This document shows positions 6,101 to 60,428 of a stretch of 64,000 nt of DNA, piece by piece (the first letter of the stretch is position 1; each line of letters begins with the position of its first letter). The DNA is taken from the sequence record MF327006. The stretch is one strand, 5' to 3'. The notes under the pieces are model-generated. The model did no database searches, was not told the origin of the DNA, and saw nothing but the letters and a program-made list of their open reading frames with translations. Both the position numbers and the translations under genes were made by a program. Origin of the DNA: Shigella phage Sf20.

Positions 6101-7603
6101 ATGCAAGATATTAAAATTCACTTTCTGAACTACTCCCATGTTCAAATTGAATGTAGCGATTCAATTTTATTAGAAATGCGAGATTATTTTAGTTTTGAAG
6201 TCGAGGGAGCGCGGTTTCAAAAAAGATTTAAGTATGGTGGATGGGATGGGCGTATTCGTCTTTTAGATTACAACGGAAAGCTGCCAATCGGCCTAACTAA
6301 AACCGTGGGAATCTTCGCTAAAAATATGGGCTATAGCGTATGGGTAGATCCTCGCTTATTCGAAAAAGAACAAGTTACAGAAGAAGAAATTACAAAATGG
6401 TGTAATGACTTAGAATTATATTCCGGTGCTAACAGGATCACCCCGCATTGGTATCAATCAAAGGCTGTCTTTGAAGGTATCCATCATAAACGCCGTATGT
6501 TAGTTTTGCCTACGTCCGCTGGTAAATCTGCGATTGCTTGTATGTTGTCTCGCTGGTACTTAGAGAACTACGAAGGGAAAGTGCTGATCATCGTTCCTAC
6601 CACGTCGCTAGTGCTGCAAATGCGTGATGATTTTGTTGATTATCGCCAGTTTCCGTATGAAGCAATTCATACTATCATGAGCGGTACTAGTAAACACGTA
6701 GGTGATCGCCTGATCGTTGTTAGTACGTGGCAATCAGCATGTAAACAGCCTCGTGAGTGGTTCCAACAATTTGGGATGGTAATTGTTGATGAATGTCACA
6801 AAGCCACTGCTAAAAACCTGCTAAACATCGTTACTGATATGGCTCATTGCCAATTTAAGATCGGCATGACTGGTTCCCCTCGTGACGGGAAAGCTAACAT
6901 GATGCAGTATGTCGGGCTTTTCGGTGATATTTCCAAGATCGTGAGTATTGACCGCCTGATGGAAGAAGGGCAGGTGACAAAACTGAAAATTAACTGTCTT
7001 TTCCTTCGTTATACCGATGAGGAATGTAGCGCGGTTAAGGGGCGAGAATATGCGGAAGAGATCAAGTATATTACGTCTAACCCACGACGAAATAAGTTTG
7101 CTTGTAATTTGGCGCTAAAACTCGCTAAGAAGGGCGAAAACGTATTCCTTATGTTCCGCAATACTAAGCACGGAAAACTTATGTATGACGCGTTACAGAA
7201 GGTACACGACAAGGTTTATTATATTGACGGTGGAGTTAAGACAGAAGAACGTGATGAATTTAAGAAAATGGCGGAGGGTGACACCGGGATCATTTGTGTT
7301 GCGTCTTATGGTGTATTCTCTACTGGTGTTTCAATTAAGAATTTGCATCATGTTATTTTCGGTCATCCAGTGAAGGAATCAACTATCGTTCGTCAGAGTA
7401 TCGGTCGTGCATTGCGTAAACATGGTTCGAAAGACATTGCAACGGTCTGGGATCTTATAGATCATCTGGCGGTGAAGACAAAGAGCAAGAATGCTAAGAA
7501 ACAGTTTAGCCACCTTAATTATGCTCTTAAACATGCGCTTGAAAGAATAAAAATTTATAACACCGATCGATTCGAATATGTCACGAAAACAATCGAGATT
7601 TAA
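6101..7603 (+). CDS. uvsW: UvsW RNA-DNA/DNA-DNA helicase (SF2)
   Basis: Near-colinear with T4 UvsW (MQDIKIHF..., PTSAGKS Walker A, DECH box, GKANMMQYVG); ORF-track start at 6086 is a GTG, ATG at 6101 matches the T4 N-terminus. Confidence 0.9.
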   Translation: MQDIKIHFLNYSHVQIECSDSILLEMRDYFSFEVEGARFQKRFKYGGWDGRIRLLDYNGKLPIGLTKTVGIFAKNMGYSVWVDPRLFEKEQVTEEEITKWCNDLELYSGANRITPHWYQSKAVFEGIHHKRRMLVLPTSAGKSAIACMLSRWYLENYEGKVLIIVPTTSLVLQMRDDFVDYRQFPYEAIHTIMSGTSKHVGDRLIVVSTWQSACKQPREWFQQFGMVIVDECHKATAKNLLNIVTDMAHCQFKIGMTGSPRDGKANMMQYVGLFGDISKIVSIDRLMEEGQVTKLKINCLFLRYTDEECSAVKGREYAEEIKYITSNPRRNKFACNLALKLAKKGENVFLMFRNTKHGKLMYDALQKVHDKVYYIDGGVKTEERDEFKKMAEGDTGIICVASYGVFSTGVSIKNLHHVIFGHPVKESTIVRQSIGRALRKHGSKDIATVWDLIDHLAVKTKSKNAKKQFSHLNYALKHALERIKIYNTDRFEYVTKTIEI

Positions 7604-7646
7604 TAAATAGGGGCTTTAATGCCCCTTTATTCTACGGAGATTAAAA

Positions 7647-7883
7647 ATGATTAGCTTTAAACGTTTTTTGGTTGAGGCCGCTATTGACGGTTTCATGCGT
7701 AAGATTTATTCTTGTAATACTATCGAGGGATTAAATGAACTTGAGGCATATTATGAGAAGCGCAAGAAAGAAACAGAATTGAAACCTGCTGATGATATTT
7801 CGATCCGTGATGCCATCGCCGGACGCCGTAAGCAATTGGAAGCGGACAACGAGCCAGAAGATGAGCCGGAAGAGGATTTTTAA
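7647..7883 (+). CDS. uvsW.1: UvsW.1-like small protein
   Basis: 78-aa ORF immediately after uvsW, GGAGA RBS; acidic C-terminus. Confidence 0.6.
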   Translation: MISFKRFLVEAAIDGFMRKIYSCNTIEGLNELEAYYEKRKKETELKPADDISIRDAIAGRRKQLEADNEPEDEPEEDF

Positions 7884-8599: not shown

Positions 8600-8998
8600 T
8601 CACTTTGCAAGTCTTATGCGTAGTTGTTCAAGATCATCTGGGTTGTCTATTACTGAAAAGTAGATTGATACTATGATTGAGTTATCGTCGTACTGCGGAG
8701 TTACTTCTACTGTCAGGTTTCGGACCCGTGGTTCATAGTTTCGGATCGCCTCATTGATGTTTTTTGATAAGGTATCCACTGTCAGTGGGTTCATGTTCTC
8801 AAACAGTGATTTATTGAGATCGCATCCAAACAGTGGATCAAATGGACGAGATCCCTTGCGAGTAGTCACGATCAGTAGAATAGAATCCTTAACCGCTTTA
8901 ATCCCTATGTTCTTTTTAACGTCGTTATTCCACGATCTGGATATATTGAGATCCAAATCAGTATACATCTGATTAATAGTTGCCATGTTATACCTCAA
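8600..8998 (-). CDS. 25: baseplate wedge protein gp25
   Basis: TTRKGSRPFDPLFGCDL and FSVIDNPDDLEQ match T4 gp25; same length (132 aa). Confidence 0.9.
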   Translation of the reverse strand: MRYNMATINQMYTDLDLNISRSWNNDVKKNIGIKAVKDSILLIVTTRKGSRPFDPLFGCDLNKSLFENMNPLTVDTLSKNINEAIRNYEPRVRNLTVEVTPQYDDNSIIVSIYFSVIDNPDDLEQLRIRLAK

Positions 8999-9624
8999 AG
9001 AATTTTAAGGAAACTGGATAGACCTGATAATGAATATACACCAGATTCCCCGCATTCGCACTTGATCGGTACTGCCAGCGTGATTTGATTTCTTGTTAGC
9101 TCGTCGATCACTTCTTCCACTTTATCCGTGGTAAGCATATCCAGCACGCGGTCAAAGTCCTGTGCGTTCAGGTCGTCTATATTGAATTGCTGATCTCCGA
9201 TCACGATATATTCGATACATGCAATTACCATCTGCATAATATCAACATCTTCTGTAAACTTAGGTTGACGAAATTTGATTTTTACTTGCCCTAAGTCCAG
9301 AATATACGGTTCAACTTCTGGTATCTGTGTGCGTGAAACATCAAGAGAGTATACTTTCTCTTTATTGCATACACCACACACCCAAGTAGCATCAAATTTC
9401 ATCTTATTGAGGCTGTGACACCATAAGAGAAGAAAAATATATTCTGCTTCGCATTTCTCTAGCTCTAATGCATTGATCCCCGTACATTCATGTATGGTCT
9501 CTATAACAACCTCTGACAGCTTGCCAGTCTCTTTTGCTGCTACCAGTTTTTGAAATTCGCCGAAGGTGAAAGCACGGGCGTGTATCAACTTTTCGCCTAA
9601 TTGGATCTTGAACAAGTATTGCAT
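8995..9624 (-). CDS. 26: baseplate hub protein gp26
   Basis: Position and size (209 aa); CxxC motifs; overlaps the gp25 start by 4 nt. Confidence 0.75.
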   Translation of the reverse strand: MQYLFKIQLGEKLIHARAFTFGEFQKLVAAKETGKLSEVVIETIHECTGINALELEKCEAEYIFLLLWCHSLNKMKFDATWVCGVCNKEKVYSLDVSRTQIPEVEPYILDLGQVKIKFRQPKFTEDVDIMQMVIACIEYIVIGDQQFNIDDLNAQDFDRVLDMLTTDKVEEVIDELTRNQITLAVPIKCECGESGVYSLSGLSSFLKIL

Positions 9625-9694: not shown

Positions 9695-10465
9695 ATGAAT
9701 ATTATCCGAATAAAACTACCGGAAGGTGTGCAGAGATTTAAACCATTCACGGTAAAAGATTATAGAGATTTCCTTCTGGTGTCAACTGAAATTAAGATGA
9801 ATCCAGAAGAAGAACAAACGATTCTTGATGAGCTATTAGAAGAAATATATCCAGACGTAGATCCGGCATTTCGTGAATATATTTTCCTGAATGTCTTTAC
9901 TAGTTCAATTGGTAAAACTAAGATACCGCTTTGTTTTACTTGCCCGACTTGCAACAAAGAAAGAAGAATGTTGCTTAACTTACAGGTTGAAGCCCTAAAA
10001 CCAATCGTTCTAGAGGCCGCAGGGCTTAAAATAACTTTCCGGTATGTTAAACCATCAACCGACTATGCAAAAACGTTTCTGGATGCGATAGAGCGTGTAT
10101 CTGATGGTATTAATGATTATCTATGGACTGAATTACCGGAAGAAGTTAGAGAACAGGTTATCGATTCAATCTCATTTGCTGAATTTGAAGAAGTTGTCAA
10201 GCAGATGCACACAATCAAGATCGAACAAAAGATATCTTGTTGTGAAAGTCATGACCTGAAATACATAGGTCTTCTTCCATTATTCAAATTGTTGTTGAAT
10301 CCAGATGAGTTATTCATCTTTTATCGAATAAACCATCTATTGGCAAAATCAAATTATTCTATCAGTGATCTTATGGATATGTTACCCGTCGAGAGAAACA
10401 TTGCACTGACACTGGTCGAGAAAGACGTAAAAGAGGCAAATAATGCAAAGAACGGGGTTTCCTAA
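9695..10465 (+). CDS. 51: baseplate hub assembly protein gp51
   Basis: Position between 26 and 27; CxxC...CxxC motif paralogous to gp26. Confidence 0.7.
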   Translation: MNIIRIKLPEGVQRFKPFTVKDYRDFLLVSTEIKMNPEEEQTILDELLEEIYPDVDPAFREYIFLNVFTSSIGKTKIPLCFTCPTCNKERRMLLNLQVEALKPIVLEAAGLKITFRYVKPSTDYAKTFLDAIERVSDGINDYLWTELPEEVREQVIDSISFAEFEEVVKQMHTIKIEQKISCCESHDLKYIGLLPLFKLLLNPDELFIFYRINHLLAKSNYSISDLMDMLPVERNIALTLVEKDVKEANNAKNGVS

Positions 10466-17207: not shown

Positions 17208-19333
17208 TTACATTTTAAATTTATCTGGCATTGCGTCTACAGATACCAGGTCAGCGATAAGCTGACGTAGAGTTGCCTTATCTGCTTTCTTACGTTCGGT
17301 TTTAGCTTCGCTAATGAAGCTGGAGAAAGACAGGTCAGAAGCAGGTTTAACAACACCTTCACGGATGAATGCATCACCGTCCGCGATCATCTCGCCAGAT
17401 TCTTGTAATGCTGCCAGTTCATTTTTGTTCATAATATGTGCCTCAATGTAATAAGTTTCTTGTGAATCCGTCGATGCCGTAGCACGAGTTACCGTATCAA
17501 AGGATAACACAACACCGCGAGGAAGTAAAATCTCGCATTCTTTGTAAGCAAATGCTTTGTTACCTACTGGCAAGACAGGGATGTTTTCCGCGCCAGCAAT
17601 GGAGAAAGCAACATTAGCGCCACCTTCACCGCGAGAGCCAGCCATAGAATCAACACCAGCAACGGCACTAGCCACGTTTGCATTCCAGCCGCCAAAAATT
17701 CACCGCGAGAGCCAGCCATAGAATCAACACCAGCAACGGCACTAGCCACGTTTGCATTCCAGCCGCCAAAAATGTTAGGTGCAAGGGAAGTGCTCACATA
17801 GTTTTTAAAGTAAAACGCTTTTTGCTTACGTGCAGTTTCCCACATTTGCGACCGGAAGTCCATACCACGATACAGAATAGTACCCGGATCAAGTTTAACA
17901 CCATAGTTAGAGAAGGCATTATCCAGTGCATCGCACATCTTGACCAATTCTTCTGGATCTGCGATTCCCTCAAACTCTTCCAGCTTACGATCAGTTAGGA
18001 AGTTGTTCATATTGATGTATGCTGCATCGGCATATTCGCTCAACACAAAACCTTCCGCGCCTGGCAGATCAAGATCAATATCTGCCATCATTTCACCCAT
18101 GTTGCTAGCAATTGCTTCAAACATACCGGAGGCAACATTACGTAGGGCATCGGTTTTAATCTGGGTGATATGACTACGCAGCATTTCAGCTTTTACATCT
18201 GCTGGCATAGACTGGTCTACTCGATCCATTGCCAAGGCGGTGATCTTGTTTTCGAATACTTCCTCGCTCATGATTTCTTTTAAGCGTTTGACCGAGGCTG
18301 CGATAACTTCCGCAGACAATGGGTCATATTGATCCTGAACTTTTACCAGTTCGCTTACTGCGTATTTTGCATCGGCTTCGCTTTCAAAAATAGTACGCAT
18401 GAAACCATAGCGAGTGATAATATCACTTGTCCAGTCATTCAGAGAACGGGCGGTTGAACGTTCTAAGGCTTGACGGTCAATCAGAGTATTAAACTGTTTC
18501 TTAGGTTCTGCTTCGGTGATATCTTCTTCCGGTTTAAGATTAATTTTTTCTGGATGATTCACATAGTCGCTGTTATAGGTCGCTTGAGTTTTCAGCATTT
18601 CTTCTTTAGTCAAACGAGATTTAGCCGCTACGCGTTGTTCTGCTTCCGCGTTTCGTTCTTCTTCTGACACAAGACTAGCCGCATACGCCTCATCTTTAGT
18701 CAGAGATTCACCAGTAGCCTTAGATACCCAGCGATCACCTAAATCACTTTCTACTTTAGTGAACAAGGATTCATCAAGTTTAATCCCTTTAATCTTATCA
18801 ATCGCCATCCCGCGACGCTTGACAACAACTAAAGCGATCTTTTTGCTGGTCATTACTTCCTGCTGGAATACTTCAAACTTCGGTGTACGACGCACCAAAC
18901 GCTCTATAACGCGCTTAACCAGTTCGGTCTTACCTTTCATGCGGGATACGTTAAAACGGAACATAACAGCGTCTAATTGAGCTTTACGGGCTGTTTCCAT
19001 AACCACATCAAAAGCACTTGCCATAACTGCAATCGGGTTATCGCCTAGACCATTTTTAAGCTGTATAATACGACCGCTTTTGTTCATTTCGCACAGTACA
19101 ACATGTGCGGTCTTGTCACCCATACGAATGATTTTAGGTGTTTTGTTGGTGAAGTTGCAAAGACGGACAATCACATCTTTATCGCGTGTCTGTACTGCAA
19201 AAAGCTGTTTAGGATTCTGCTTAGGCTTTAAGCACTGTACAGGAGCAATACTGCCAAAGTTTTCTTCCTCTTCCGTCAACAGCCATTTCTCGAAAGATTC
19301 AATCATTAGATCGTCGATTTCTAAGTTAAACAT
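17208..19333 (-). pseudogene. alt: alt ADP-ribosyltransferase, reading frame split by a 74-bp tandem duplication (ORFs 17564..19333 and 17208..17675)
   Basis: Upstream ORF ends ...FKNYVSTSLAPNIFGG...VAGVDSMAGSRGE then garbage; downstream ORF begins ASAVAGVDSMAGSRGE... and carries ECEILLPRG; removing one repeat copy gives a 684-aa protein (T4 Alt is 682 aa). Confidence 0.75.
17625..17772. repeat. perfect tandem duplication, 2 x 74 bp (17625-17698 and 17699-17772)
   Basis: Unit TTCACCGCGAGAGCCAGCCATAGAATCAACACCAGCAACGGCACTAGCCACGTTTGCATTCCAGCCGCCAAAAA repeated head-to-tail; 74 is not a multiple of 3. Confidence 0.9.
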
Positions 19334-19614: not shown

Positions 19615-19650
19615 TTGATACTCCTTAGTAGTTCGTTTCGGTATGTGTGC

Positions 19651-19679
19651 ATTATAGGGGATCACCGATCCCCTGTCAA
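19651..19679 (-). promoter_or_regulatory. early sigma70-type promoter with palindromic spacer (stem-loop type)
   Basis: On - strand: TTGACA, 17-nt spacer GGGGATCGGTGATCCCC (perfect palindrome), TATAAT; A-rich UP-like tract upstream. Confidence 0.55.
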
Positions 19680-19686
19680 CAACTTT

Positions 19687-20241
19687 TTAGTTATTTTTTA
19701 ATTGTTCATCTTGCAATAATGCAATCACATGCTGGCGATGTTCTTCCGATTGAGGTACACCGAAAAAGTTTGTTTTGTAGAAATACTCTAATCGGTCTTC
19801 TCGTGTGCTCTCTTCCATCATGATCGCGGGTAGTCCGAGATTTCGGAAACGTCGCTTTTCTGCTGGCGTAAAATCACTGTAATACAACATAGAATCATCA
19901 TTACAAGCAATGCTAAACTCATCCTTCATAAAGGAGAATATTGCGTTTAAACGCTGTTTACCGTCCACGATTTCGATCTCATAGCGAGAGCCATCATCAA
20001 TCTTAGCCATTGCGATAGCACCAACCGGAAAATCATTAATCAGGTTTTCAATAAACATACGTTTGTTTTCGGTGTCCCATACTAAAGGACGCTGATAATC
20101 TGGGTTCATGTTGATATAGCCATCTTCTAACCATGCTTCGTAAACAGAGATAACAAAGTTTTTAGTATTGGTATAGTAGCGGCGTTTAGGCGTTAAACGG
20201 TTCATGTTATAGTCTCCTGAATGGGTCATCACGTAAATCAA
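19687..20241 (-). CDS. DUF262 (ParB-like nuclease superfamily) domain protein
   Basis: DYQRPLVWD and IVDGKQRL motifs resemble the DUF262/GmrS N-terminal domain signature (DGQQR). Confidence 0.55.
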   Translation of the reverse strand: MIYVMTHSGDYNMNRLTPKRRYYTNTKNFVISVYEAWLEDGYINMNPDYQRPLVWDTENKRMFIENLINDFPVGAIAMAKIDDGSRYEIEIVDGKQRLNAIFSFMKDEFSIACNDDSMLYYSDFTPAEKRRFRNLGLPAIMMEESTREDRLEYFYKTNFFGVPQSEEHRQHVIALLQDEQLKNN

Positions 20242-21494: not shown

Positions 21495-21742
21495 GCTGCC
21501 CCCATTGGTTTGATAGTAACAGAATCTAAAAGACCTTTGTTAGCCAGTTCGCGGCAAGTTTTCAGATCCGCAACTTCCCAACCAGCCGCAATCAGGTTAT
21601 CAATCAGGCTGTTAGCAACTTCTTCGCTCATGAAAGAGCACTGTTTGCCGATGGTGTAGCGTACACGCTGTAATTTCAGTTTACGGAAGCCTTTAACGTT
21701 CAGGTCTTTAGCGATTTTCTTTGCGGTTTCGATGTTAGCCAT
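21491..21742 (-). CDS. hypothetical protein (83 aa)
   Basis: ORF with GGAGAATCAAAC RBS and promoter upstream. Confidence 0.45.
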   Translation of the reverse strand: MANIETAKKIAKDLNVKGFRKLKLQRVRYTIGKQCSFMSEEVANSLIDNLIAAGWEVADLKTCRELANKGLLDSVTIKPMGAA

Positions 21743-21782
21743 TGTTTGATTCTCCTAAGTGGTATCTCGTCTTGATGGTTGT

Positions 21783-21811
21783 ATTGTAGGGGAGTTATCC
21801 TCCCCTGTCAA
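21783..21811 (-). promoter_or_regulatory. early promoter with stem-loop spacer
   Basis: - strand: TTGACA, spacer GGGGAGGATAACTCCCC, TACAAT. Confidence 0.5.
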
Positions 21812-21825
21812 CACTTTTTATAAAA

Positions 21826-21993
21826 TTATTTGTTAATTTCTGGTGCGTTGCTAGGATAGTAACCTTCTTTAACACCCAGATATTTTGCAACCATCCCTAC
21901 AATCTTCTGTGCTACTACAATGTCAAATTTCAGATAATCTTCGCCGTGGGTTTCAATGATATATGCTTCACATGCTGCTTTAGTCTCGAACAT
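21826..21993 (-). CDS. small hypothetical protein (55 aa), paralog of 25593..25760
   Basis: MFETKAACEAYIIETHGEDYLKFDIVVAQK... ~85% identical to the 25593 copy; GGAGAATCAAA RBS; below the ORF-track cutoff. Confidence 0.5.
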   Translation of the reverse strand: MFETKAACEAYIIETHGEDYLKFDIVVAQKIVGMVAKYLGVKEGYYPSNAPEINK

Positions 21994-22026
21994 TTTGATT
22001 CTCCTATTTCGTTTCGTTATGTGTGT

Positions 22027-22055
22027 ATTATAGGGGATCTCCCGATCCCCGTCAA
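22027..22055 (-). promoter_or_regulatory. early promoter with stem-loop spacer
   Basis: - strand: TTGACG, spacer GGGATCGGGAGATCCCC, TATAAT. Confidence 0.5.
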
Positions 22056-22069
22056 CAACTTTTTTAAAA

Positions 22070-22351
22070 TTATTCGTGATTAGTTTCGATGTTGTGCATT
22101 TTGCACCAGTTCAGCCAATCACCCAGATCCTGATAGTTAATGCTTTTATCTGCTGCCATCGTTTTTGTCTTGATACCCATATGTGCGTTATGAGTAAGCA
22201 TTTTTACAGTGAACTCAATTTTATCACCTTTAGCTTTAACATCAACCAGTTTGGTCCACTGGCTACCAGCGCCGCGAATGTTCATACCAACGATGTTTCC
22301 GATGTATGCTTCTTTGTTTTTCAGGATTTCGGTTGCTTTGATGAATTTCAT
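22070..22351 (-). CDS. hypothetical protein (93 aa)
   Basis: ORF behind its own promoter and RBS. Confidence 0.45.
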   Translation of the reverse strand: MKFIKATEILKNKEAYIGNIVGMNIRGAGSQWTKLVDVKAKGDKIEFTVKMLTHNAHMGIKTKTMAADKSINYQDLGDWLNWCKMHNIETNHE

Positions 22352-22372
22352 TTTTGATTCTCCAGTTCGTTT

Positions 22373-22401
22373 CGGTATGTGTGTATTATGCTATGTTCTT
22401 A
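22373..22401 (-). promoter_or_regulatory. early sigma70-type promoter
   Basis: - strand: TTGACA, 17 nt, CATAAT, A-tract upstream. Confidence 0.45.
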
Positions 22402-22421
22402 CTTTGGTGTCAACAACTTTT

Positions 22422-22691
22422 TTAGATATTTTCAGAAATAAATTTTAAAACTTGACGTAAATGTTTCTCATCTTTGATAGTCGCCGGAAGTTCTTCTTTT
22501 ACTTCCTGTGCAAGATAGATATTTCCGTTCCAAGTGAAAGATCCGTCTTCGTTTACGCGATAGCTGAACATCCACTCGCAATCATTTTCGATTTCATATA
22601 CACACAGAAGGGTGTAATCGTTAAAGCTATTGATTTCAAGGTCGAAGCCGTGACGTTTTGCAAAGTTGGTAGTGGTTTTAGTCAGAGCCAT
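22422..22691 (-). CDS. hypothetical protein (89 aa)
   Basis: ORF with AGGAGAATCAAACA RBS. Confidence 0.45.
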   Translation of the reverse strand: MALTKTTTNFAKRHGFDLEINSFNDYTLLCVYEIENDCEWMFSYRVNEDGSFTWNGNIYLAQEVKEELPATIKDEKHLRQVLKFISENI

Positions 22692-22728
22692 TGTTTGATT
22701 CTCCTAAATGGTATCTCGTTTCGATGGG

Positions 22729-22757
22729 TGTATTATGCTATAGGCCGGATCTGGTGT
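22729..22757 (-). promoter_or_regulatory. early sigma70-type promoter
   Basis: - strand: TTGACA, 17 nt, CATAAT; conserved leader CATCGAAACGAGATAC. Confidence 0.5.
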
Positions 22758-22767
22758 CAATGCCTTT

Positions 22768-22797
22768 TTTAAAAAAGCCGACACTAAGGTCGGCACA
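22768..22797. terminator. terminator hairpin GCCGACACTAAGGTCGGC (same hairpin recurs near 23270)
   Basis: Perfect 6-bp GC stem flanked by A-run and T-run. Confidence 0.5.
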
Positions 22798-22799
22798 TT

Positions 22800-23111
22800 T
22801 TAAAAATTCTTGCTATATATGCAAGCCTCATAATCTAGAGGATGACCGCCAATCCTACCCGGCTTAATATTCCAACCGCATCGATATTTGCTGACCATGC
22901 TAACAGTTTCGGTTCTTAGAGCATTTCTTTGCAAATCATACCCCCTAAATTCTTGTCTATAAGGACAGTCCGCTTTGCAAGTTGGCGGTTCTACGTCATT
23001 TAGAGGGTCGGAAGCAGTTGGCTTTATTATCAATTCTTTGTTTGCAATAATCATAAGCACATCCCATTGAAGACAATTTAACATCTTCGCAATAAGTGTT
23101 GAATCCGTCAA
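22800..23111 (-). CDS. hypothetical Cys-containing protein (start uncertain)
   Basis: ORF overlaps the upstream gene by >100 nt; true start probably internal. Confidence 0.3.
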   Translation of the reverse strand: MTDSTLIAKMLNCLQWDVLMIIANKELIIKPTASDPLNDVEPPTCKADCPYRQEFRGYDLQRNALRTETVSMVSKYRCGWNIKPGRIGGHPLDYEACIYSKNF

Positions 23112-23187
23112 ACACGATCACTTCGTATTTGACTCCATCAGCGATAGCTTTTACTTTATACCATCCATGCTTGTATAAAATCTTCAT
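22996..23187 (-). CDS. hypothetical protein (63 aa)
   Basis: GAGGA RBS; promoter upstream. Confidence 0.45.
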   Translation of the reverse strand: MKILYKHGWYKVKAIADGVKYEVIVFDGFNTYCEDVKLSSMGCAYDYCKQRIDNKANCFRPSK

Positions 23188-23304
23188 CTTTATTTCCTCG
23201 ATCTCGTTTCGATGGGTGTATTATGCTATAGGCTAGACCAGGTTGTCAACAACTTTTTTAATTTTTTGGAAATAAAAAGCCGACACTAAGGTCGGCTAAT
23301 AAAA

Positions 23305-23613
23305 TCATTTAGACAAGTAATCATTCTGTGCAATACGGTCGGCGTATGCTGGTGTTATGTCAATCGCCAGCACTTTAACGCGTGCTTTCTTGCGACCTGG
23401 GTTTTCTCGTAACCAGTGCTCATGACCGTGAACATTTTTATACTTTGATGCTTCTTCAAATGTACGGATCGGACCTGGGTAATCAGCGTAAAGGATCTCT
23501 AGGTCTTCGGTGATGTAAAAATATACATCGTAATTACTGTTCTCTAGTTTAAGCAGAGAGTTGCGAAATTGTGGTAAATTCTCGCGGGTAAATTCAACTA
23601 CAAGATTTTTCAT
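23305..23613 (-). CDS. HxHW-motif family protein, copy 1
   Basis: HGHEHW...VKVLAIDI shared with five neighbouring paralogs. Confidence 0.5.
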   Translation of the reverse strand: MKNLVVEFTRENLPQFRNSLLKLENSNYDVYFYITEDLEILYADYPGPIRTFEEASKYKNVHGHEHWLRENPGRKKARVKVLAIDITPAYADRIAQNDYLSK

Positions 23614-23663
23614 AGTGATATCCTCATTCAGATAGATTAAAAGGGGGCTTAACGCCCCGTATA

Positions 23664-23951
23664 TTAAAACAGTCCTTCCTGTACACCGTAGTAGAGTTCA
23701 TCGCTGATAATTTCATTAATGCGACGGTGTGCATATTCCTGATTTGCGAAGTTATCAGCAAGTTCTACTTTAGTTTCGCCGTCATGAGTCCATTTAGTGA
23801 TAACTTTACCATCTGCAAATTTGAAGTTGAACTCTTTAGCTACTGCATCGCGTACCAGACGTGCGAACTTGTTGTTACGGATTGCATTATCGGTTTCGTG
23901 TGCAGCGTGAGCGAATTTGTTAACTTTCAGAGTGATAGTAATGTATGCCAT
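23664..23951 (-). CDS. hypothetical protein (95 aa), AKEFN-motif family
   Basis: LVRDAVAKEFNFKF resembles LIREVRKALAKEFNTKI of 26978..27289. Confidence 0.45.
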   Translation of the reverse strand: MAYITITLKVNKFAHAAHETDNAIRNNKFARLVRDAVAKEFNFKFADGKVITKWTHDGETKVELADNFANQEYAHRRINEIISDELYYGVQEGLF

Positions 23952-24032
23952 AATTTGATTCTCCTAGTTAGAAAGTGTATCTCGTTTCGATGGGGATATT
24001 ATGCTATATCCCCGATCCGGTGTCAACACTTT

Positions 24033-24311
24033 TTATAAAATAATTTTTTGATATTTTTCTATGATGTTCGTGTAAGTCACATCAACCGCTAGCACCGTTG
24101 CTTCGAATCCACCGTTTAGCCAATGGCTATGATCATGATCGTGAAAGAAACCTAGACCAGTACGAAGACCTTCTTTATATTCTGCGCGTACATTCAGTTT
24201 GTCGTCGATAAACAGATAAAACCATGAATTTTTACTAGGATTGATGATACAACCTTTCAGATTAGGGAGAATATCACGACTAAGAATAAACTTATCACCT
24301 ACTTTGAGCAT
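24033..24311 (-). CDS. HxHW-motif family protein, copy 2
   Basis: Internal start MLKVG with GAGGAAA RBS; HDHDHSHW...TVLAVDV. Confidence 0.5.
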   Translation of the reverse strand: MLKVGDKFILSRDILPNLKGCIINPSKNSWFYLFIDDKLNVRAEYKEGLRTGLGFFHDHDHSHWLNGGFEATVLAVDVTYTNIIEKYQKIIL

Positions 24312-24325
24312 AATATTTTCCTCAC

Positions 24326-24634
24326 TTATAAAGTTTGACCGTTGTTTTTCGCGTAATGCTGAATGCGTGCTTGATCTGCTTCCGCTGGTGATAGATTCCA
24401 TGCGATCACTACAACTTCTGACGCATCATGATCATTATCACTTACCCAATGATTATGATTCATACAATTGTTTGCTATCGCGTGAGCAAATGATCTCATT
24501 ACCGGAGACGTATAATCATAGTAACGGATTTTCAGATTTTCATCAACGTACAAGTAGATCGTATACGGCTTATATTCAGTAACCAGTAACAGACAGTTAC
24601 GCAATTCTGGGAAAATCTTTTTAGTTAATTTCAT
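24326..24634 (-). CDS. HxHW-motif family protein, copy 3
   Basis: Internal start MKLTKK with GAGGA RBS; NHNHW...VVVIAWN. Confidence 0.45.
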   Translation of the reverse strand: MKLTKKIFPELRNCLLLVTEYKPYTIYLYVDENLKIRYYDYTSPVMRSFAHAIANNCMNHNHWVSDNDHDASEVVVIAWNLSPAEADQARIQHYAKNNGQTL

Positions 24635-24635
24635 T

Positions 24636-24854
24636 TTATAATCCTCGGTCGCGGCTATAGTAAACGGTACGCCATACAATTTCATGTTTCGTGTCGCTCC
24701 AGCACACGATCTCATTTACTCTTAAATCTTTGTTATCAACAAAAGATGAACATTGTGACGCTTCTTTCATCATTTTATCTGCTGTTTTCTCATCAAATAC
24801 AGCACAGATTTCTTTATACACTCGATAATCTTTGAATTGACTCTGAATACCCAT
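24636..24854 (-). CDS. hypothetical protein, KMMKEAS family copy 1
   Basis: Paralogous to 24814..25077 (SQFKDYRVYKEI...KMMKEASQC); start uncertain. Confidence 0.4.
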   Translation of the reverse strand: MGIQSQFKDYRVYKEICAVFDEKTADKMMKEASQCSSFVDNKDLRVNEIVCWSDTKHEIVWRTVYYSRDRGL

Positions 24855-25077
24855 AATTAACACCATTCCAACCAATTGTTTTTGAGAAAACGTTTATCCA
24901 CTGTTGAGTGTAACATGTTTCTTTCCATGATACAATACGAGTAGAATAATGGTTTTTGTTTCCAGAAAAGGACGGGCATTTTGATGCATCTTCCATCATC
25001 TTTTCGGCGAACTCTGGTGCGTATACTCGCAGGATCTGTTGATATGCTTTGTATTCTTTAAATTTGCTCATAATCAT
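24814..25077 (-). CDS. hypothetical protein, KMMKEAS family copy 2
   Basis: SKFKEYKAYQQI...KMMEDASKC. Confidence 0.4.
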   Translation of the reverse strand: MIMSKFKEYKAYQQILRVYAPEFAEKMMEDASKCPSFSGNKNHYSTRIVSWKETCYTQQWINVFSKTIGWNGVNYGYSESIQRLSSV

Positions 25078-25336
25078 TCACTACCTTATCAGCTTCTTTT
25101 GTTGTTTTTACATCAACTGCGATAACTCGTAAAGGTTCGTCATGGTTCCACCAGTGGTCATGAATATCAGCTTGTGATTTATCACCAAAGGAATCACGAA
25201 TATCATTTTTACATTTATAGCTAATGTGACCTTCATAGTCAACATAAAGGTAATTATCGAAAATCGGCGTTTTTAAGATCATACCGAAAAATCTTTCTTT
25301 GTGTGTCTTATCCAGCGTTGCAGTAATTCGCATCAT
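25058..25336 (-). CDS. HxHW-motif family protein, copy 4
   Basis: IHDHWW...RVIAVDV. Confidence 0.5.
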   Translation of the reverse strand: MMRITATLDKTHKERFFGMILKTPIFDNYLYVDYEGHISYKCKNDIRDSFGDKSQADIHDHWWNHDEPLRVIAVDVKTTKEADKVVNDYEQI

Positions 25337-25592
25337 AATATATTCCTCTTAGAAAGGGATGGTCATTTCTTGAGCTTGTACGTTCTCGTTAGGATTAAAC
25401 TTCATCCAGCCGATATTGTCTACCAGCATATGCACATTTTTATCATATCCTACGTGGGTAGTCAATACTGTATGTGCTTTACCTTCAATGATGAGTTCCA
25501 TGTACTTCTGAACTTCGATAGCTTTCATTTTGATTCTCCGTTTGTTGTCTTGATGGGAGTATCTTACTACTCCCTTTAATCATTGTCAACTA

Positions 25593-25760
25593 TTATTTGT
25601 TAATTTCTGGTGCGTTGCTCGGATAGTAACCTTCTTTAACACCAAGATATTTTGCAACCATTCCGGTGATCTTCTGTGCTACTACGATATCGAATTTCAG
25701 GTAGTCTTCACCGTGGTTTGCTACAATGTACGCTTCGCATTCTGCTTTAGTCTGGAACAT
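25593..25760 (-). CDS. small hypothetical protein (55 aa), paralog of 21826..21993
   Basis: MFQTKAECEAYIVANHGEDYLKFDIVVAQK...; internal start directly downstream of a palindromic-spacer promoter. Confidence 0.5.
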   Translation of the reverse strand: MFQTKAECEAYIVANHGEDYLKFDIVVAQKITGMVAKYLGVKEGYYPSNAPEINK

Positions 25761-25804
25761 TTTTGATTCTCCTATATCTCGTTGGTATGTGTGCATTATA
25801 GGGG

Positions 25805-25833
25805 ATCGGTGATCCCCTGTCAACAACTTTATA
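25805..25833 (-). promoter_or_regulatory. early promoter with palindromic spacer
   Basis: - strand: TTGACA, GGGGATCACCGATCCCC, TATAAT. Confidence 0.55.
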
Positions 25834-26122
25834 ATGCTTTATATGCGTATTTCATAAATTTGTCTGCCACTTCATTGGCATGTTCAGATTCTACGCCTGA
25901 TTCGAGAACAATAGCTAGGTCGGTTTCGTCATTCCCGCCGTACCAATGATTTGATGTTCGATTTTTTTCAATTGGAAAGTGGTCACTTTTATCTGTGCGA
26001 CAAAATACATCTAAATGCTCGTCGATGTAAAAGATCCAATCTTCATAAAGAATAACGGTATTAGCAAGATTTTTATTGCCTTCAACGAAAGGTTCGGCTA
26101 CAAACAAATTAGTATGTTCCAT
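25829..26122 (-). CDS. HxHW-motif family protein, copy 5
   Basis: Internal start MEHTNLF with GAGGAAAA RBS; TSNHW...LAIVLESG. Confidence 0.45.
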   Translation of the reverse strand: MEHTNLFVAEPFVEGNKNLANTVILYEDWIFYIDEHLDVFCRTDKSDHFPIEKNRTSNHWYGGNDETDLAIVLESGVESEHANEVADKFMKYAYKAL

Positions 26123-26138
26123 AGTATTTTCCTCAAAA

Positions 26139-26330
26139 TTATACAGCTTCGTAAACTTCCCAATGTCCAACACCAGCACGCTTAACGAAAAGGTTTTCTT
26201 TGATGTTATTCATAAACGTCTGGATGGATTTAATGCGGTTTGAAGGTTTCCATTCTTCGTTGGCATTGCGTCGATACATCATAACATTACCAGTTCGCTT
26301 ATATTCAGCAACCATTTTAAGACCACACAT
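26139..26330 (-). CDS. hypothetical protein (63 aa)
   Basis: ORF in operon-like spacing. Confidence 0.35.
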   Translation of the reverse strand: MCGLKMVAEYKRTGNVMMYRRNANEEWKPSNRIKSIQTFMNNIKENLFVKRAGVGHWEVYEAV

Positions 26331-26387
26331 AATATTATCCTCAATTTGTGGGAGAGTATTACCCCTCCCAATGATTGTTATGTTATA

Positions 26388-26708
26388 TCACACAAAATGG
26401 CGTGTCAATGCTTCTTTTGCGGTTCCGCTAAGACTTTCGATCTCGCCTGGCATAACATCAACCGCCAGAACTTCTACAACATCCTCGGACCCTAACCAGT
26501 GAGTATGACCTTTGTAGAACTTGATAACCAGACTACCTTCCTCGTCCCATTTAACGCTATCGCTAGCCCACCACACATCACAGTCGATAAAGTTGATGTA
26601 AAGCACACTACGCCACATTGAATTAATTACTTTCAATATTGCGCCTTTCATCTCTTCCACGGTATGGTCTTCCATTTTGAAGACCTCACCTACCTGAACT
26701 TTTGCCAT
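26388..26708 (-). CDS. HxHW-motif family protein, copy 6
   Basis: GHTHWLGSEDVVEVLAVDV. Confidence 0.5.
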   Translation of the reverse strand: MAKVQVGEVFKMEDHTVEEMKGAILKVINSMWRSVLYINFIDCDVWWASDSVKWDEEGSLVIKFYKGHTHWLGSEDVVEVLAVDVMPGEIESLSGTAKEALTRHFV

Positions 26709-26725
26709 TTAGTCACCTCTCTTTA

Positions 26726-26905
26726 TTACATAACAATCACGCCAGCCGTTGAAAGTTGATGTTTCAACTGAGCATTTTCTGCTACCGTCAAATCAATGAT
26801 TTCTTGTGACGCTGCAATCATATAGCCATTGGTGATATTGTTTTGCATCAGTTCAATGGTTTCTTCGTTGTAGCGGATTTTAGCGATGATTTCGTTGAAG
26901 TTCAT
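26726..26905 (-). CDS. small hypothetical protein (59 aa)
   Basis: ATG with AGGAGAATCAATT RBS; promoter upstream. Confidence 0.4.
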   Translation of the reverse strand: MNFNEIIAKIRYNEETIELMQNNITNGYMIAASQEIIDLTVAENAQLKHQLSTAGVIVM

Positions 26906-26939
26906 AATTGATTCTCCTAGTTCGTTTCGGTATGTGTGT

Positions 26940-26969
26940 AGTATAGGGGAGTTTAACCTCCCCTGTCAA
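26940..26969 (-). promoter_or_regulatory. early promoter with stem-loop spacer
   Basis: - strand: TTGACA, GGGGAGGTTAAACTCCCC, TATACT. Confidence 0.5.
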
Positions 26970-26977
26970 CAACTTTT

Positions 26978-27289
26978 TTAAAGTTTTTCCATGATAACGG
27001 TCATAATTACATCTTCTGCGCGAGCGGTCAGATTATCAGCGTCAGCATGTGGGCGGTTGGTTGTTACAGAGATAACACCGTTGCGCACTGGTTTGATATT
27101 GATATCAAGATGATCCGCGAAACGTTCGCCAGTTACAGAATGAATTTTGGTGTTAAATTCTTTTGCCAGTGCCTTGCGAACTTCACGAATCAGGATAGCG
27201 TTTTTCAGTTGGTTCTCCGCGCTCATGGTCTTCTGGGTGTTCATGGTTCCGTCGAAGTCAATCATTGGCAGCGTTACGATGTATTTCAT
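26978..27289 (-). CDS. hypothetical protein (103 aa), AKEFN-motif family
   Basis: Paralogous motif with 23664..23951. Confidence 0.45.
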   Translation of the reverse strand: MKYIVTLPMIDFDGTMNTQKTMSAENQLKNAILIREVRKALAKEFNTKIHSVTGERFADHLDINIKPVRNGVISVTTNRPHADADNLTARAEDVIMTVIMEKL

Positions 27290-27334
27290 TTTTGATTCTC
27301 CGTTTAAGAAAGTGTGTTTCGTTTTGATGTGTGT

Positions 27335-27363
27335 AGTATAGGGGATACGTGATCCCCTGTCAA
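27335..27363 (-). promoter_or_regulatory. early promoter with palindromic spacer
   Basis: - strand: TTGACA, GGGGATCACGTATCCCC, TATACT. Confidence 0.5.
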
Positions 27364-27376
27364 CAACTTTTTTGAA

Positions 27377-27721
27377 TTATTTTTTCATGAGCTTAATGGC
27401 TTCTTCCATAGCCAGCACATTTCGATAGTTAGGGTATCGTGTTAGATCGTCATACATTCGCTTAAGGGTGGAAACTTCCTCAAACTCTGGGTTTTCTAGA
27501 TACAGTTGAACAAATTGTTTCTCTACCATCTCTGCTTTTAGCTTGTCTGCTTGTTCCTGTTCATATGATTTCGTTGGACCCAACACCAACAAAATGATAA
27601 AGGTGATCAACGGGCTAATGATCAATGATAGGATAACATAACCGATAACGCTACGGTTTAAACGGCTTGCATACATGCCTACCAGGAAAACAAAAAGGAT
27701 ATAGATAAACAGAAAGAACAT
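27377..27721 (-). CDS. membrane protein (two N-terminal TM helices)
   Basis: Hydrophobic N-terminal 50 aa followed by a charged coiled region. Confidence 0.5.
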   Translation of the reverse strand: MFFLFIYILFVFLVGMYASRLNRSVIGYVILSLIISPLITFIILLVLGPTKSYEQEQADKLKAEMVEKQFVQLYLENPEFEEVSTLKRMYDDLTRYPNYRNVLAMEEAIKLMKK

Positions 27722-38050: not shown

Positions 38051-38218
38051 ATCACTTTTTAACACAAAAGAACTTAGTATTTCTGTTTATTTCGTTATCC
38101 TGTTGCAATTCCTGCACGGCTTCAAAACAGCTTTGATGTGATGAAAACTCCACGCTGGTAACAGTTCCTTTATTATATGATCCTACGCTAACGGAAAGCA
38201 ATAACCATAATGTAGCCA
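38051..38218 (-). CDS. small protein MATLWLL... (55 aa), tandem paralog A
   Basis: Hydrophobic N-terminus; paralogous to 38218..38391; TAATG coupling. Confidence 0.4.
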
Positions 38219-38391
38219 TTAGTTCACCTTTTGTTTTTCAACGCAATATAGATTCATAAAGCGTTTATTGTCTTCGCGGATAATCTCGCGAGCTTTAACG
38301 CAATCCTGCTTTGTTGCAAACTCAATGATTGACATATTTCCGTAATTATACATTGAATTGCTTATTGCAATCAATAACCATACAGTAGCCA
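38218..38391 (-). CDS. small protein MATVWLL... (57 aa), tandem paralog B
   Basis: Same architecture as 38051..38218 (MATxWLL, EF, C...C). Confidence 0.4.
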
Positions 38392-38559
38392 TTATCCTAC
38401 AACCTCAAAACATTTATCATCGGGAAGAATAACCCATTCTACGCCGTATTCATCCTCAACGTAGTAGCAAGTCCCATCATATCGAGCCTCATATACATTA
38501 CCGACAACAAAGCTATCAGCTAGCTCAAAATCTACAGCAACACATTTTAATTTGGTCAT
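38392..38559 (-). CDS. small hypothetical protein (55 aa)
   Basis: Internal start MTKLK with GAGGA RBS downstream of a promoter cassette. Confidence 0.4.
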   Translation of the reverse strand: MTKLKCVAVDFELADSFVVGNVYEARYDGTCYYVEDEYGVEWVILPDDKCFEVVG

Positions 38560-59415: not shown

Positions 59416-59661
59416 TTGGCGCATAGAAGCCCCTGAATCACATTTTGACGCTGTATGATGAAAACATGTAGCGTACCAGTCATCGGCTTGTTTGTCTTCG
59501 TCAGAAAACGCGTAATTGCGTTGTATGCCGTTTTCTACTTTGACCAGTGCAATAGCTGTTTCTGGAAGATCAATCAATCGGACAAAATCACCGTCTTCCC
59601 ACTCCACACGGGCAATATCATAGCCCATCTCAAAGTATACAATCGCTTGTTCTAATTTCAT
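59413..59661 (-). CDS. hypothetical protein (82 aa)
   Basis: ORF. Confidence 0.4.
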   Translation of the reverse strand: MKLEQAIVYFEMGYDIARVEWEDGDFVRLIDLPETAIALVKVENGIQRNYAFSDEDKQADDWYATCFHHTASKCDSGASMRQ

Positions 59662-59987
59662 TCTGGAAACTTCCCGTAAACATTCTCTGCCAGCTTACGT
59701 GCATCTTTTACAATATCTTTCATATAATGACTATAATTTTTAGCTAGATCAATGATGCAATCAACAAAGAAGTAATAGCGTCGCAGTGCTACCAGCTCAA
59801 CATCTTCAAGATGACCATTTTCTCCAATCGCTGAAATATGTTTAAATTCCTTTCGGATCGCGTCCATCGCTACATTAACTTCTTTTATAATATCTTTCGT
59901 ATTATATGCACCTCGACTAATCAAAATTTTGGTTAGGTCTTCTGCTTTTTCGTGAAAGTTGTCAATTTCAAACTCGATCATAATCAC
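59658..59987 (-). CDS. hypothetical protein, ENxxGKF family copy 1
   Basis: Paralogous to 60096..60428 (C-terminal AENVYGKFPE vs TENIFGKF). Confidence 0.45.
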   Translation of the reverse strand: MIMIEFEIDNFHEKAEDLTKILISRGAYNTKDIIKEVNVAMDAIRKEFKHISAIGENGHLEDVELVALRRYYFFVDCIIDLAKNYSHYMKDIVKDARKLAENVYGKFPE

Positions 59988-60095: not shown

Positions 60096-60428
60096 TCAAA
60101 ATTTACCGAAAATATTCTCTGTCATAATTCTTGCTTCGTCGATTATTTTCGTCATGTTCATGGTGTAGTTATGATCATTTAGTGCTTTAATAACAACGAG
60201 CAAGGAATCTAAAAACACTCGATACCGGGTATATTCTACGCTATTTGTGAATACCGATGTTTTCTCTACTTTATCGATCAGATAGCCTAAAGCCGATAGC
60301 GCCTCGTTTACTTCCCTTGTTACTTTATCGGCGCTAAACAACACCGGATAAAGACGCGGTGTGATTAACCGCGCTGCCTCTTTCAATTCGGTCGCTTTCC
60401 ATGATTCATATTTGTCATAGTTAAACAT
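60096..60428 (-). CDS. hypothetical protein, ENxxGKF family copy 2
   Basis: Paralog of 59658..59987. Confidence 0.45.
   Translation of the reverse strand: MFNYDKYESWKATELKEAARLITPRLYPVLFSADKVTREVNEALSALGYLIDKVEKTSVFTNSVEYTRYRVFLDSLLVVIKALNDHNYTMNMTKIIDEARIMTENIFGKF

Follow-up and report, generated by a model that had tools for sequence, protein, structure and literature searches.

Paralogous small genes and promoter-early stem-loop cassettes in the hyperplastic early region of Shigella phage Sf20

Introduction

The genome of Shigella phage Sf20 (sequence record MF327006) contains four pairs of small, mutually related genes, which are the subject of this report. The stretch analysed, hereafter the window, comprises 64,000 nucleotides of one strand, and most of the genes in question lie in the part of it that corresponds to the hyperplastic region of phage RB49, a locus known for its promoter-early stem-loops (PeSLs). 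The four pairs are likely to be genuine paralogous small early genes (ORFans) of this RB49-type hyperplastic region, and old rather than recent. The best preserved pair, whose two 55-codon genes look at first sight like a fresh duplication, is most simply read from its sequences as an old pair that has been partly homogenised by short-patch gene conversion.

The locus and its PeSL cassettes

A megablast search with positions 21500-27500 matched 58 phage records, all of them Krischvirus, i.e. RB49-like T4-type coliphages. Identity over the locus amounts to 99.3% with vB_Eco_SAP and TB34 and to 97% with RB49 positions 116854-123431. Gene by gene, the region that holds the pairs matches RB49 open reading frames (ORFs) 190 to 212, all on the minus strand according to the RB49 annotation, and this block is located between a DNA methyltransferase gene and HNH/ligase genes. 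RB49 ORF192 is absent from the window, as it is from phi1. The RB49 gene numbers are used throughout for the window genes.

It was at this same locus, the hyperplastic region of RB49 (ORF190-211), that Arbiol et al. (2010) defined the PeSLs, which combine a strong sigma-70-type early promoter with a stem-loop terminator and whose promoter and terminator activities were both measured in RB49/phi1 (PMC2839356). PeSL mini-circles holding ORF191-194 and ORF210 were detected experimentally in RB49/phi1; their crossovers lie between the -10 box and the ATG or in the stem-loop (PMC2839356). In the model of these authors the mini-circles are proposed as vehicles of horizontal transfer (PMC2839356).

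Cassettes of this kind are readily recognised in the window. Between 21.7 and 27.4 kb, a promoter scan found 11 minus-strand sites with at least 10 of the 12 sigma-70 consensus positions (TTGACA, 17 ± 1 nt, TATAAT), including those upstream of ORF191, ORF205, ORF198 and ORF210. G/C-rich stem-loops of the form GGGG...CCCC lie between the promoter hexamers or overlap them (GGGGATCGGGAGATCCCC, GGGGATCACCGATCCCC and GGGGAGGATAACTCCCC; these were read directly, the repeat families by scan), and breakpoints of insertions and deletions (indels) among close relatives fall inside PeSLs.

The window thus resembles the published PeSL system (Arbiol 2010, PMC2839356; Comeau 2014, PMC4122927) in its locus, in a genome that is 97-99% identical, in the succession of near-consensus sigma-70 promoter, GGGG...CCCC hairpin and Shine-Dalgarno (SD) sequence ahead of small ORFans, and in indel crossovers inside the PeSL. 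Moreover, one member each of two of the pairs, ORF191 (pair 1) and ORF210 (pair 3), is carried on the published mini-circles. The difference concerns the relatedness of the genes themselves, since the word stems "paralog" and "duplicat", in the sense of gene duplication, occur in neither paper. Arbiol et al. themselves drew an analogy with integron gene cassettes (PMC2839356), which are likewise small promoter-associated single-gene modules with possible circular forms and insertion at recurring sites. However, there is no integrase and no attC or attI site here, exchange appears to use general homologous recombination at short repeats, and each cassette of the RB49-type locus has a promoter of its own.

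Four pairs of paralogous small genes

The sequence-only reading that preceded this analysis had named four pairs of related genes, here called pairs 1 to 4, and all of them were recovered at the coordinates it had given, on the minus strand (Table 1). It had also proposed an all-versus-all BLASTP comparison of the small ORFs. This was carried out with all 364 ORFs of 40 aa or more in the window, with pairwise BLASTP as a check, and gave significant coding-region similarity for pairs 1, 2 and 4. ORF191 and ORF205 (pair 1) share 49 of 55 residues (89%, E=9e-35); over their 168 nt they are 86.3% identical, so that the figure of about 85% given earlier holds at the DNA level. ORF201 and ORF202 (pair 2) agree in 25 of 63 residues (40%; E=4e-14 all-versus-all, E=1e-16 pairwise) and the two members of pair 4 in 23 of 87 (26%; E=3e-5 all-versus-all, E=8e-8 pairwise). 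Repeat scans picked up no DNA-level similarity within pairs 2-4. Each pair belongs to a single PHROG, namely 8009 (pair 1), 8471 (pair 2), 7474 (pair 3) and 9457 (pair 4), and Pfam has no family for any of the eight proteins. A sub-threshold Pfam match of ORF198 to Tox-ART-HYD1 (E=0.06, 14 bits against a cut-off of 25) was dismissed.

For pair 3 the link between the two members is transitive, through profiles and through the predicted fold. Direct BLASTP of ORF198 against ORF210 was not significant (E=8), and Smith-Waterman alignment finds only a 24-aa patch around the motif AKEFN, with a score of 55 against 26 ± 4.8 for shuffled sequences; its p of about 0.001 would fail correction for the many possible pairs in the window. 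Nevertheless, tblastn searches with either protein hit the same gene in Gaprivervirus-type phages, SP18_gp146, which aligns with both over nearly their full length (45% identity, E=3e-15, for ORF198; 32% over 96 residues, E=6e-13, for ORF210), and both belong to phrog_7474 at full length with E of about 4e-43. The AlphaFold model of ORF198 also matches, in BFVD, a 109-aa RB49 protein of the size of RB49 ORF210 (probability 0.99, template-modelling (TM) score 0.59-0.67). A MAFFT alignment puts the identity of ORF198 and ORF210 at about 28%. By virtue of the SP18 intermediate, the PHROG assignment and the predicted fold, pair 3 is a pair of true but distant paralogues.

The idea that these similarities are due to chance, or are confined to shared promoter, leader or SD sequences, can be given virtually no weight. 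PeSL repeats are indeed abundant in the region, and pair 3 is not significant in direct BLASTP. However, the alignments of pairs 1, 2 and 4 are significant within the coding regions, and pair 3 is backed by the intermediate sequence, the PHROG assignment and the evidence from folds. Similarity restricted to promoter and leader, which the sequence-only reading had named as grounds for refutation, is thus not what is seen. If the HxHW genes linked by BLASTP are counted as well, the stretch from 21.5 to 27.4 kb contains approximately 22 genes, of which about half have a paralogue there. An additional tandem pair, which the sequence-only reading had not listed, is formed by two ORFs of 55 and 57 aa at 38052-38392, with 38% identity over 55 aa (E=6e-13).

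Table 1. Coordinates of the paired genes, the PeSLs next to pair 1 and the intervening block
Feature	RB49 equivalent	Position	Strand	Description	Evidence
Pair 1, copy A	ORF191	21826..21993	-	ORF191 type, 55 aa, phrog_8009	ORF list, RB49 annotation, BLASTP, PHROG
Pair 1, copy B	ORF205	25593..25760	-	ORF205 type, 55 aa, phrog_8009	ORF list, BLASTP, PHROG
PeSL upstream of ORF191		21994..22069	-	-35 TTGACG at 22055, stem-loop GGGGATCGGGAGATCCCC, -10 TATAAT, SD AGGAGAA	promoter scan, motif search, alignment
PeSL downstream of ORF191		21743..21825	-	drives ORF190	alignment, promoter scan, motif search
PeSL206/205		25761..25828	-	upstream of ORF205; 12/12 sigma-70 consensus, stem-loop GGGGATCACCGATCCCC	alignment, promoter scan, motif search
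PeSL205/204		25529..25592	-	TTGACA-17-TAAGAT, stem-loop GGGAGTA..TACTCCC overlapping the -10 box	alignment, promoter and repeat scans (family D5)
Block between the pair-1 direct repeats	ORF193 to ORF204	21994..25592	-	about 14 small early genes	gene tables, junction alignments
Pair 2, downstream member	ORF201	24636..24854	-	72 aa, phrog_8471	BLASTP, PHROG
Pair 2, upstream member	ORF202	24814..25077	-	87 aa, phrog_8471	BLASTP, PHROG
Pair 3, first member	ORF198	23664..23951	-	95 aa, phrog_7474; preceded by a PeSL (-35 at 24026)	PHROG, tblastn, promoter scan, model
Pair 3, second member	ORF210	26978..27289	-	103 aa, phrog_7474; flanked by PeSLs (-35 at 27363 and 26969)	PHROG, tblastn, promoter scan
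Pair 4, downstream member		59658..59987	-	109 aa, phrog_9457	BLASTP, PHROG
Pair 4, upstream member		60096..60428	-	110 aa, phrog_9457	BLASTP, PHROG
Additional tandem pair		38052-38219 + 38219-38392	-	both phrog_5579	BLASTP, PHROG

Pair 1 is a repeated PeSL-bounded cassette

Both genes of pair 1 lie behind a near-consensus promoter. The one upstream of ORF191 matches the consensus in 11 of 12 positions, and the RB49/phi1 counterpart of PeSL206/205, which precedes ORF205, was a strong promoter in a lacZ assay (PMC2839356). On the 5' side the two copies become homologous at the upstream PeSL's -35 box (AAAGTTGTTGAC), and the homology continues through the hairpin, the -10 box, the SD sequence and the 168-nt gene; on the 3' side it extends 4 nt beyond the stop codon (TAAT), up to the point at which the downstream PeSLs, different for the two copies, start. 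Since the homology is bounded by the start of a PeSL and the vicinity of the stop codon, the repeated unit of pair 1 is one PeSL-bounded cassette. By analogy with the published system, this unit is what a PeSL mini-circle would carry.

The likeness of the two upstream PeSLs does not by itself prove that promoter and gene were duplicated together, because a third PeSL at 19629-19688 is as similar to both of them (83-85%) as they are to each other (repeat family D1).

Age of pair 1 and probable homogenisation of its copies

Nei-Gojobori estimates for the whole gene give 0.75 synonymous (dS) and 0.055 non-synonymous (dN) substitutions per site, and the resulting dN/dS of about 0.07 implies that both copies are under purifying selection. 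The divergence is very unevenly distributed along the gene. Codons 1-33 have a dS of about 1.9 (the proportion of synonymous differences, pS, being 0.69 and thus near saturation) and a dN of 0.095, codons 34-55 a dS of 0.17 and a dN of 0. A maximum chi-square test places the breakpoint at nt 99 (permutation p=0.012), and only 2 positions differ in the last 69 nt of the window genes. According to tblastn, two copies are present in 51 of the 58 Krischvirus records; five have the 205 type only and two the 191 type only. The duplication therefore predates the sampled Krischvirus diversity and is not recent.

A comparison of 11 ORF191-type and 10 ORF205-type copies from 12 genomes reveals how the two types have evolved relative to each other. 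Fixed differences between them occur in nt 33-41 and 93-99 only. There are none in nt 100-168, where the distance between the types, 4.5 on average and 0 at the minimum, comes near to that within them (1.7-1.9); for example, ORF205 of MIZ4 is identical to the window ORF191 in this 3' segment. Polymorphisms at nt 24, 51 and 141 are common to both types. The patches in PTE-Eco09 are reciprocal: its ORF191 is of the 205 type at nt 7, 20 and 24, its ORF205 of the 191 type at nt 51-75. Heterogeneous divergence, shared polymorphisms and genome-specific mosaic patches, the three signs by which gene conversion can be recognised, are thus all present in ORF191/ORF205. The two signs of a recent duplication, low synonymous divergence and presence in a subset of the relatives, are not. 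The simplest reading is that of an old pair partly homogenised by short-patch gene conversion, and pair 1 would look young because of this 3' homogenisation together with purifying selection. The pattern is that of concerted evolution of duplicated genes, with diverged and homogenised segments, shared polymorphisms and converted patches specific to single genomes. What differs is the tiny scale (168-nt genes) and the setting, a lytic phage with copies 3.8 kb apart in direct orientation.

The sequence-only reading had interpreted the pairs as recent in-genome duplications produced by ongoing cassette-mediated recombination. For pair 1 this finds some support in the 86% identity of the DNA, with its almost unchanged last 69 nt, and in the activity of PeSL recombination at the locus, as seen in natural deletion junctions and in the published work (PMC2839356). 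It is nevertheless a very improbable explanation, given synonymous sites near saturation in codons 1-33, type-specific differences that are the same and fixed across the 12 genomes, and two copies in 51 of the 58 records; pairs 2-4, for their part, are only 26-40% identical. A recent origin was not confirmed for any pair.

Alternatively, the near-identity of the 3' segments might reflect a constraint on the nucleotide sequence, for instance an RNA element or part of the downstream terminator or PeSL. The identical segment does adjoin the downstream PeSL in both copies, and its amino-acid sequence is also invariant. However, a more distant homologue, from phage swi2 (see below), has many synonymous differences in this same segment, the downstream PeSLs of the two copies are unlike each other, and shared polymorphisms and patchy exchanges are also found in the 5' part, for which no such constraint is proposed. 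We regard nucleotide constraint as improbable on these grounds.

Outside Krischvirus, tblastn detected a homologue of ORF191/205 in vB_EcoS_swi2, an unrelated siphovirus of 47.6 kb. This gene, gp36 (4001-4156 in the compared stretch), is 72% identical in amino acids over 50 of the 55 residues and is located between morphogenesis genes and the large terminase gene. The family was also matched by tblastn in Salmonella phages. These occurrences indicate horizontal spread of the ORF191/205-type gene. A word-indexed search of 5.8 billion proteins with ORF191 returned only 4 clusters. The structure model of ORF191 is a helical hairpin of low confidence (predicted local distance difference test, pLDDT, 61.5), too poor for a fold search.

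Recombination and natural deletions at the locus

The two copies of pair 1 flank a block of small early genes as direct repeats, and this block has been lost in two isolates. In Cognac and FL04, ORF206 is followed by a single pair-1 copy and then by ORF190; the whole ORF205-to-ORF193 stretch is gone, and thereby the 3.77-kb block between the repeats along with one repeat copy. The Cognac sequence corresponds to PeSL206/205 down to the SD sequence and is of the 191 type in the coding sequence, with the crossover between the SD sequence and codon 3. In FL04, whose ORF206 is of the Phi1 type, the switch occurs within the stem-loop of the PeSL. That the two phages differ in crossover point and in ORF206 allele indicates that the deletions were independent. 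Both crossover positions agree with those of the published mini-circles (PMC2839356).

Other relatives have been altered at other points of the locus. MIZ4 lacks ORF191-187; here the crossover involves two PeSLs, PeSL193/191 and the one that precedes ORF185, and falls in their -35 regions. Gene tables reveal further PeSL-bounded indels, through which PTE-Eco09 lacks ORF209-206, phiS ORF210-206 and SFHK24 ORF210, and JSE has a different gene between ORF193 and ORF191. Recombination at the level of cassettes is therefore well supported at this locus, by a mechanism that has already been published for it.

The sequence-only reading had further taken the repeated duplication of small genes alongside promoter cassettes as a sign of active cassette-mediated recombination. 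In one respect this was borne out, as such recombination does reshape the locus: the junctions in Cognac, FL04 and MIZ4 lie in PeSLs or in the SD-ATG stretch, in addition to the published mini-circles. Duplication alongside promoter cassettes applies only to the dispersed pairs 1 and 3, each member of which has its own PeSL. The tandem pairs 2 and 4, with no promoter cassette between their copies, provide no evidence for cassette-mediated duplication.

A small inversion can also be seen between otherwise equivalent PeSLs. The hairpin loop at window positions 25795-25823 is inverted with respect to Cognac and to the window PeSL at 19629-19688; on the transcribed strand, the window has GGGGATC-ACC-GATCCCC and Cognac GGGGATC-GGT-GATCCCC. 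The sequences suggest a palindrome-mediated flip of the loop.

The tandem pairs 2 and 4

In Phi1, the stop codon of ORF202 is fused with the start codon of ORF201 (TAATTATG). Compared with Phi1, the window has a 5-nt insertion near the 3' end of ORF202 which removes this stop, so that the gene is about 18 codons longer and overlaps ORF201 by 41 nt (24814-24854); RB49 ORF202 is annotated in the same 264-nt form. The promoter scan found no promoter between ORF202 and ORF201. Among the phages ORF201 exists in two allele types that are 62% identical, and the flanking ORF202 and ORF200 are much more conserved. To judge from this pattern, alleles of ORF201 have been replaced with the precision of a single gene, and neither edge has a PeSL. 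Single members of the pair also occur: JSE has ORF202 only, and in PTE-Eco09 ORF201 alone is annotated as intact.

The two genes of pair 4 are separated by a 108-nt spacer in which no consensus promoter was found. In MIZ5 both are replaced by one gene (860-1171 in the compared stretch) that is 54% identical to the 59658-59987 member, between flanks that are near-identical to those of the window. Makalu_002 has the same shortened match pattern as MIZ5 at this locus in megablast.

A possible DinI-like fold in pair 3

The ORF198/ORF210 family is a very small one. The word-indexed search of 5.8 billion proteins returned 2 clusters for ORF198 and 1 for ORF210, and a profile search of 1.84 billion representatives found 5 relatives and no bridge to an annotated family. 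The AlphaFold model of ORF198 has a pLDDT of 81.6 and a predicted TM score (pTM) of 0.76, and its secondary structure elements follow the order beta-alpha-beta-beta-alpha. Two methods return DinI as its best match in the PDB (7ywa, 1ghh), at 14-15% identity. Membership of the DinI family (Pfam PF06183) would be expected to go with binding to the RecA filament through the C-terminal helix. There is no Pfam hit to DinI at E≤0.1 for either ORF198 or ORF210, and a PDB sequence search with the family profile returned nothing at E≤10. The possible resemblance to DinI, the DNA-damage-inducible protein I of E. coli and a binder of RecA filaments (PMC9926225), is one of fold only, with no link at the sequence level, and membership of the DinI family is unsupported. 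As a functional lead, the possible DinI-like fold of the predicted model is a weak one.

The RB49 version of ORF210 (7538-7867 in the compared stretch) contains an 18-nt tandem repeat, which gives ERFADH twice and is absent from the window and from most relatives.

A model for the origin and maintenance of the pairs

In the explanation that we consider likely as a whole, pair 1 would be a single gene cassette, bounded by PeSLs, that occupies two PeSL sites at a distance of 3.77 kb. Its copying, or its re-insertion as a mini-circle, would have preceded the divergence of the sampled Krischvirus genomes. Thereafter ORF191 and ORF205 would each have been expressed from their own near-consensus sigma-70 promoter and maintained by purifying selection, while short-patch gene conversion would homogenise the 3' third and, occasionally, patches elsewhere. 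Each copy with its PeSL constitutes a direct repeat of about 240 bp, at which the homology-driven recombination of the phage could delete the intervening block of about 14 genes; from the published mini-circles, we infer that excision of this block as a circle may also be possible. Pair 3 would be dispersed in the same way, with a PeSL ahead of each member, but much older. Pairs 2 and 4 would be tandem duplicates within transcription units, likewise old, and no cassette was found to separate their copies. The analysis itself shows the homology, the degrees of divergence, the limits of the repeats, the pattern of conversion and the junctions of natural deletions; that duplication came before deletion is presumed, as is mini-circle re-integration as the route of dispersal.

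Several points weigh against this explanation or parts of it. The members of PeSL family D1 are all about 83-85% alike, and likeness of the upstream PeSLs alone is therefore no sign that they were duplicated together with the gene. Pairs 2 and 4 bear no mark of PeSL involvement. The 3' identity of ORF191 and ORF205 could in principle be due to constraint at the nucleotide level instead of conversion. None of the eight uncharacterised proteins has a Pfam hit, and the ORF191 model is poor (pLDDT 61). Finally, the direction of events is a presumed one, as a single-copy ancestor that received a block with a second allele by Campbell-type insertion would produce the same topology.

A further possibility is that the copies of pair 1 are xenologues, i.e. 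that the second allele came from a co-infecting relative on a PeSL mini-circle or a recombinant block and was integrated at a PeSL. A foreign allele would fit a gene of which the 5' two-thirds are highly diverged at synonymous sites and the 3' third is near-identical, as well as the occurrence of the family outside Krischvirus, in swi2 (gp36, 72% in amino acids) and in Salmonella phages. Replacement of single-gene alleles is, moreover, common at these loci, as illustrated by the ORF201 alleles with their 62% identity and by the divergent single gene of MIZ5 at pair 4, and the published model does propose horizontal transfer through mini-circles (PMC2839356). Yet no lineage outside Krischvirus was found that has a solitary allele of the 205 or 191 type and might be the donor, swi2 as the sole outgroup has states in common with both types, and the large protein databases contain just four clusters of the family. 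Although it deserves to be kept in mind more than the other alternatives, we therefore find a xenologous origin unlikely, and retain duplication within the lineage followed by conversion.

A more far-reaching proposal concerns the two dispersed pairs. ORF191/ORF205 and their PeSL repeats might turn the 3.77-kb block (ORF193-204) into a module that is frequently excised, possibly encapsidated and able to re-insert, with its flanking homology kept up by conversion; separately, ORF198/ORF210 might be DinI-like modulators of RecA- or UvsX-type recombinase filaments. If this were true, the cargo would be tied to the very recombination by which it moves, since ORF198 lies in the block and ORF210 is on a mini-circle of the published work. 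As a package, this proposal is speculative and rather doubtful.

The elements, the locus and the recombination mechanism were all known before (Arbiol 2010, Comeau 2014), and modular shuffling by PeSLs in T4-like phages has its type example here. What can be added is that some PeSL cassettes are paralogous to each other, that ORF191 and ORF205 appear to evolve in concert by short-patch conversion, and that gene and PeSL together form longer direct repeats, which would account for the recurrent deletion of about 14 genes in two isolates with different crossover points. These are details that fit the published model and introduce no new mechanism. They nonetheless make the locus a case that illustrates how the accessory early genes of a lytic phage get copied, homogenised and lost.

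Other duplications in the window

Two exact tandem duplications were noticed elsewhere in the window, and for both the comparison covered 8 listed relatives among 58 matching records. The first, of 74 bp (17625-17698 + 17699-17772), lies inside the gene of an Alt-like ADP-ribosyltransferase and shifts its frame, leaving an ORF of 589 aa; removal of one copy restores 683 aa, and in the 8 listed relatives of the 58 the corresponding alignment is 74 bp shorter. A real mutant, an assembly artefact and an introduced change are all conceivable. The second, of 332 bp (51680-52011 + 52012-52343), is found near the 3' end of the gene for the proximal subunit of the long tail fibre (gp34). Here the frameshift produces a 1216-aa ORF with an out-of-frame tail, compared with 1246 aa when one copy is removed, and the aligned span is 332 bp shorter in the 8 listed relatives of 58, which include SAP and TB34 with 99.7% identity. 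A tail fibre altered in this way would probably not function, and the duplication is suspicious for that reason. At yet another place in the window, the divergently oriented ORFs at 8995-9624 (minus strand) and 9695-10465 (plus strand) are 24% identical over 212 aa in BLASTP (E=3e-11).

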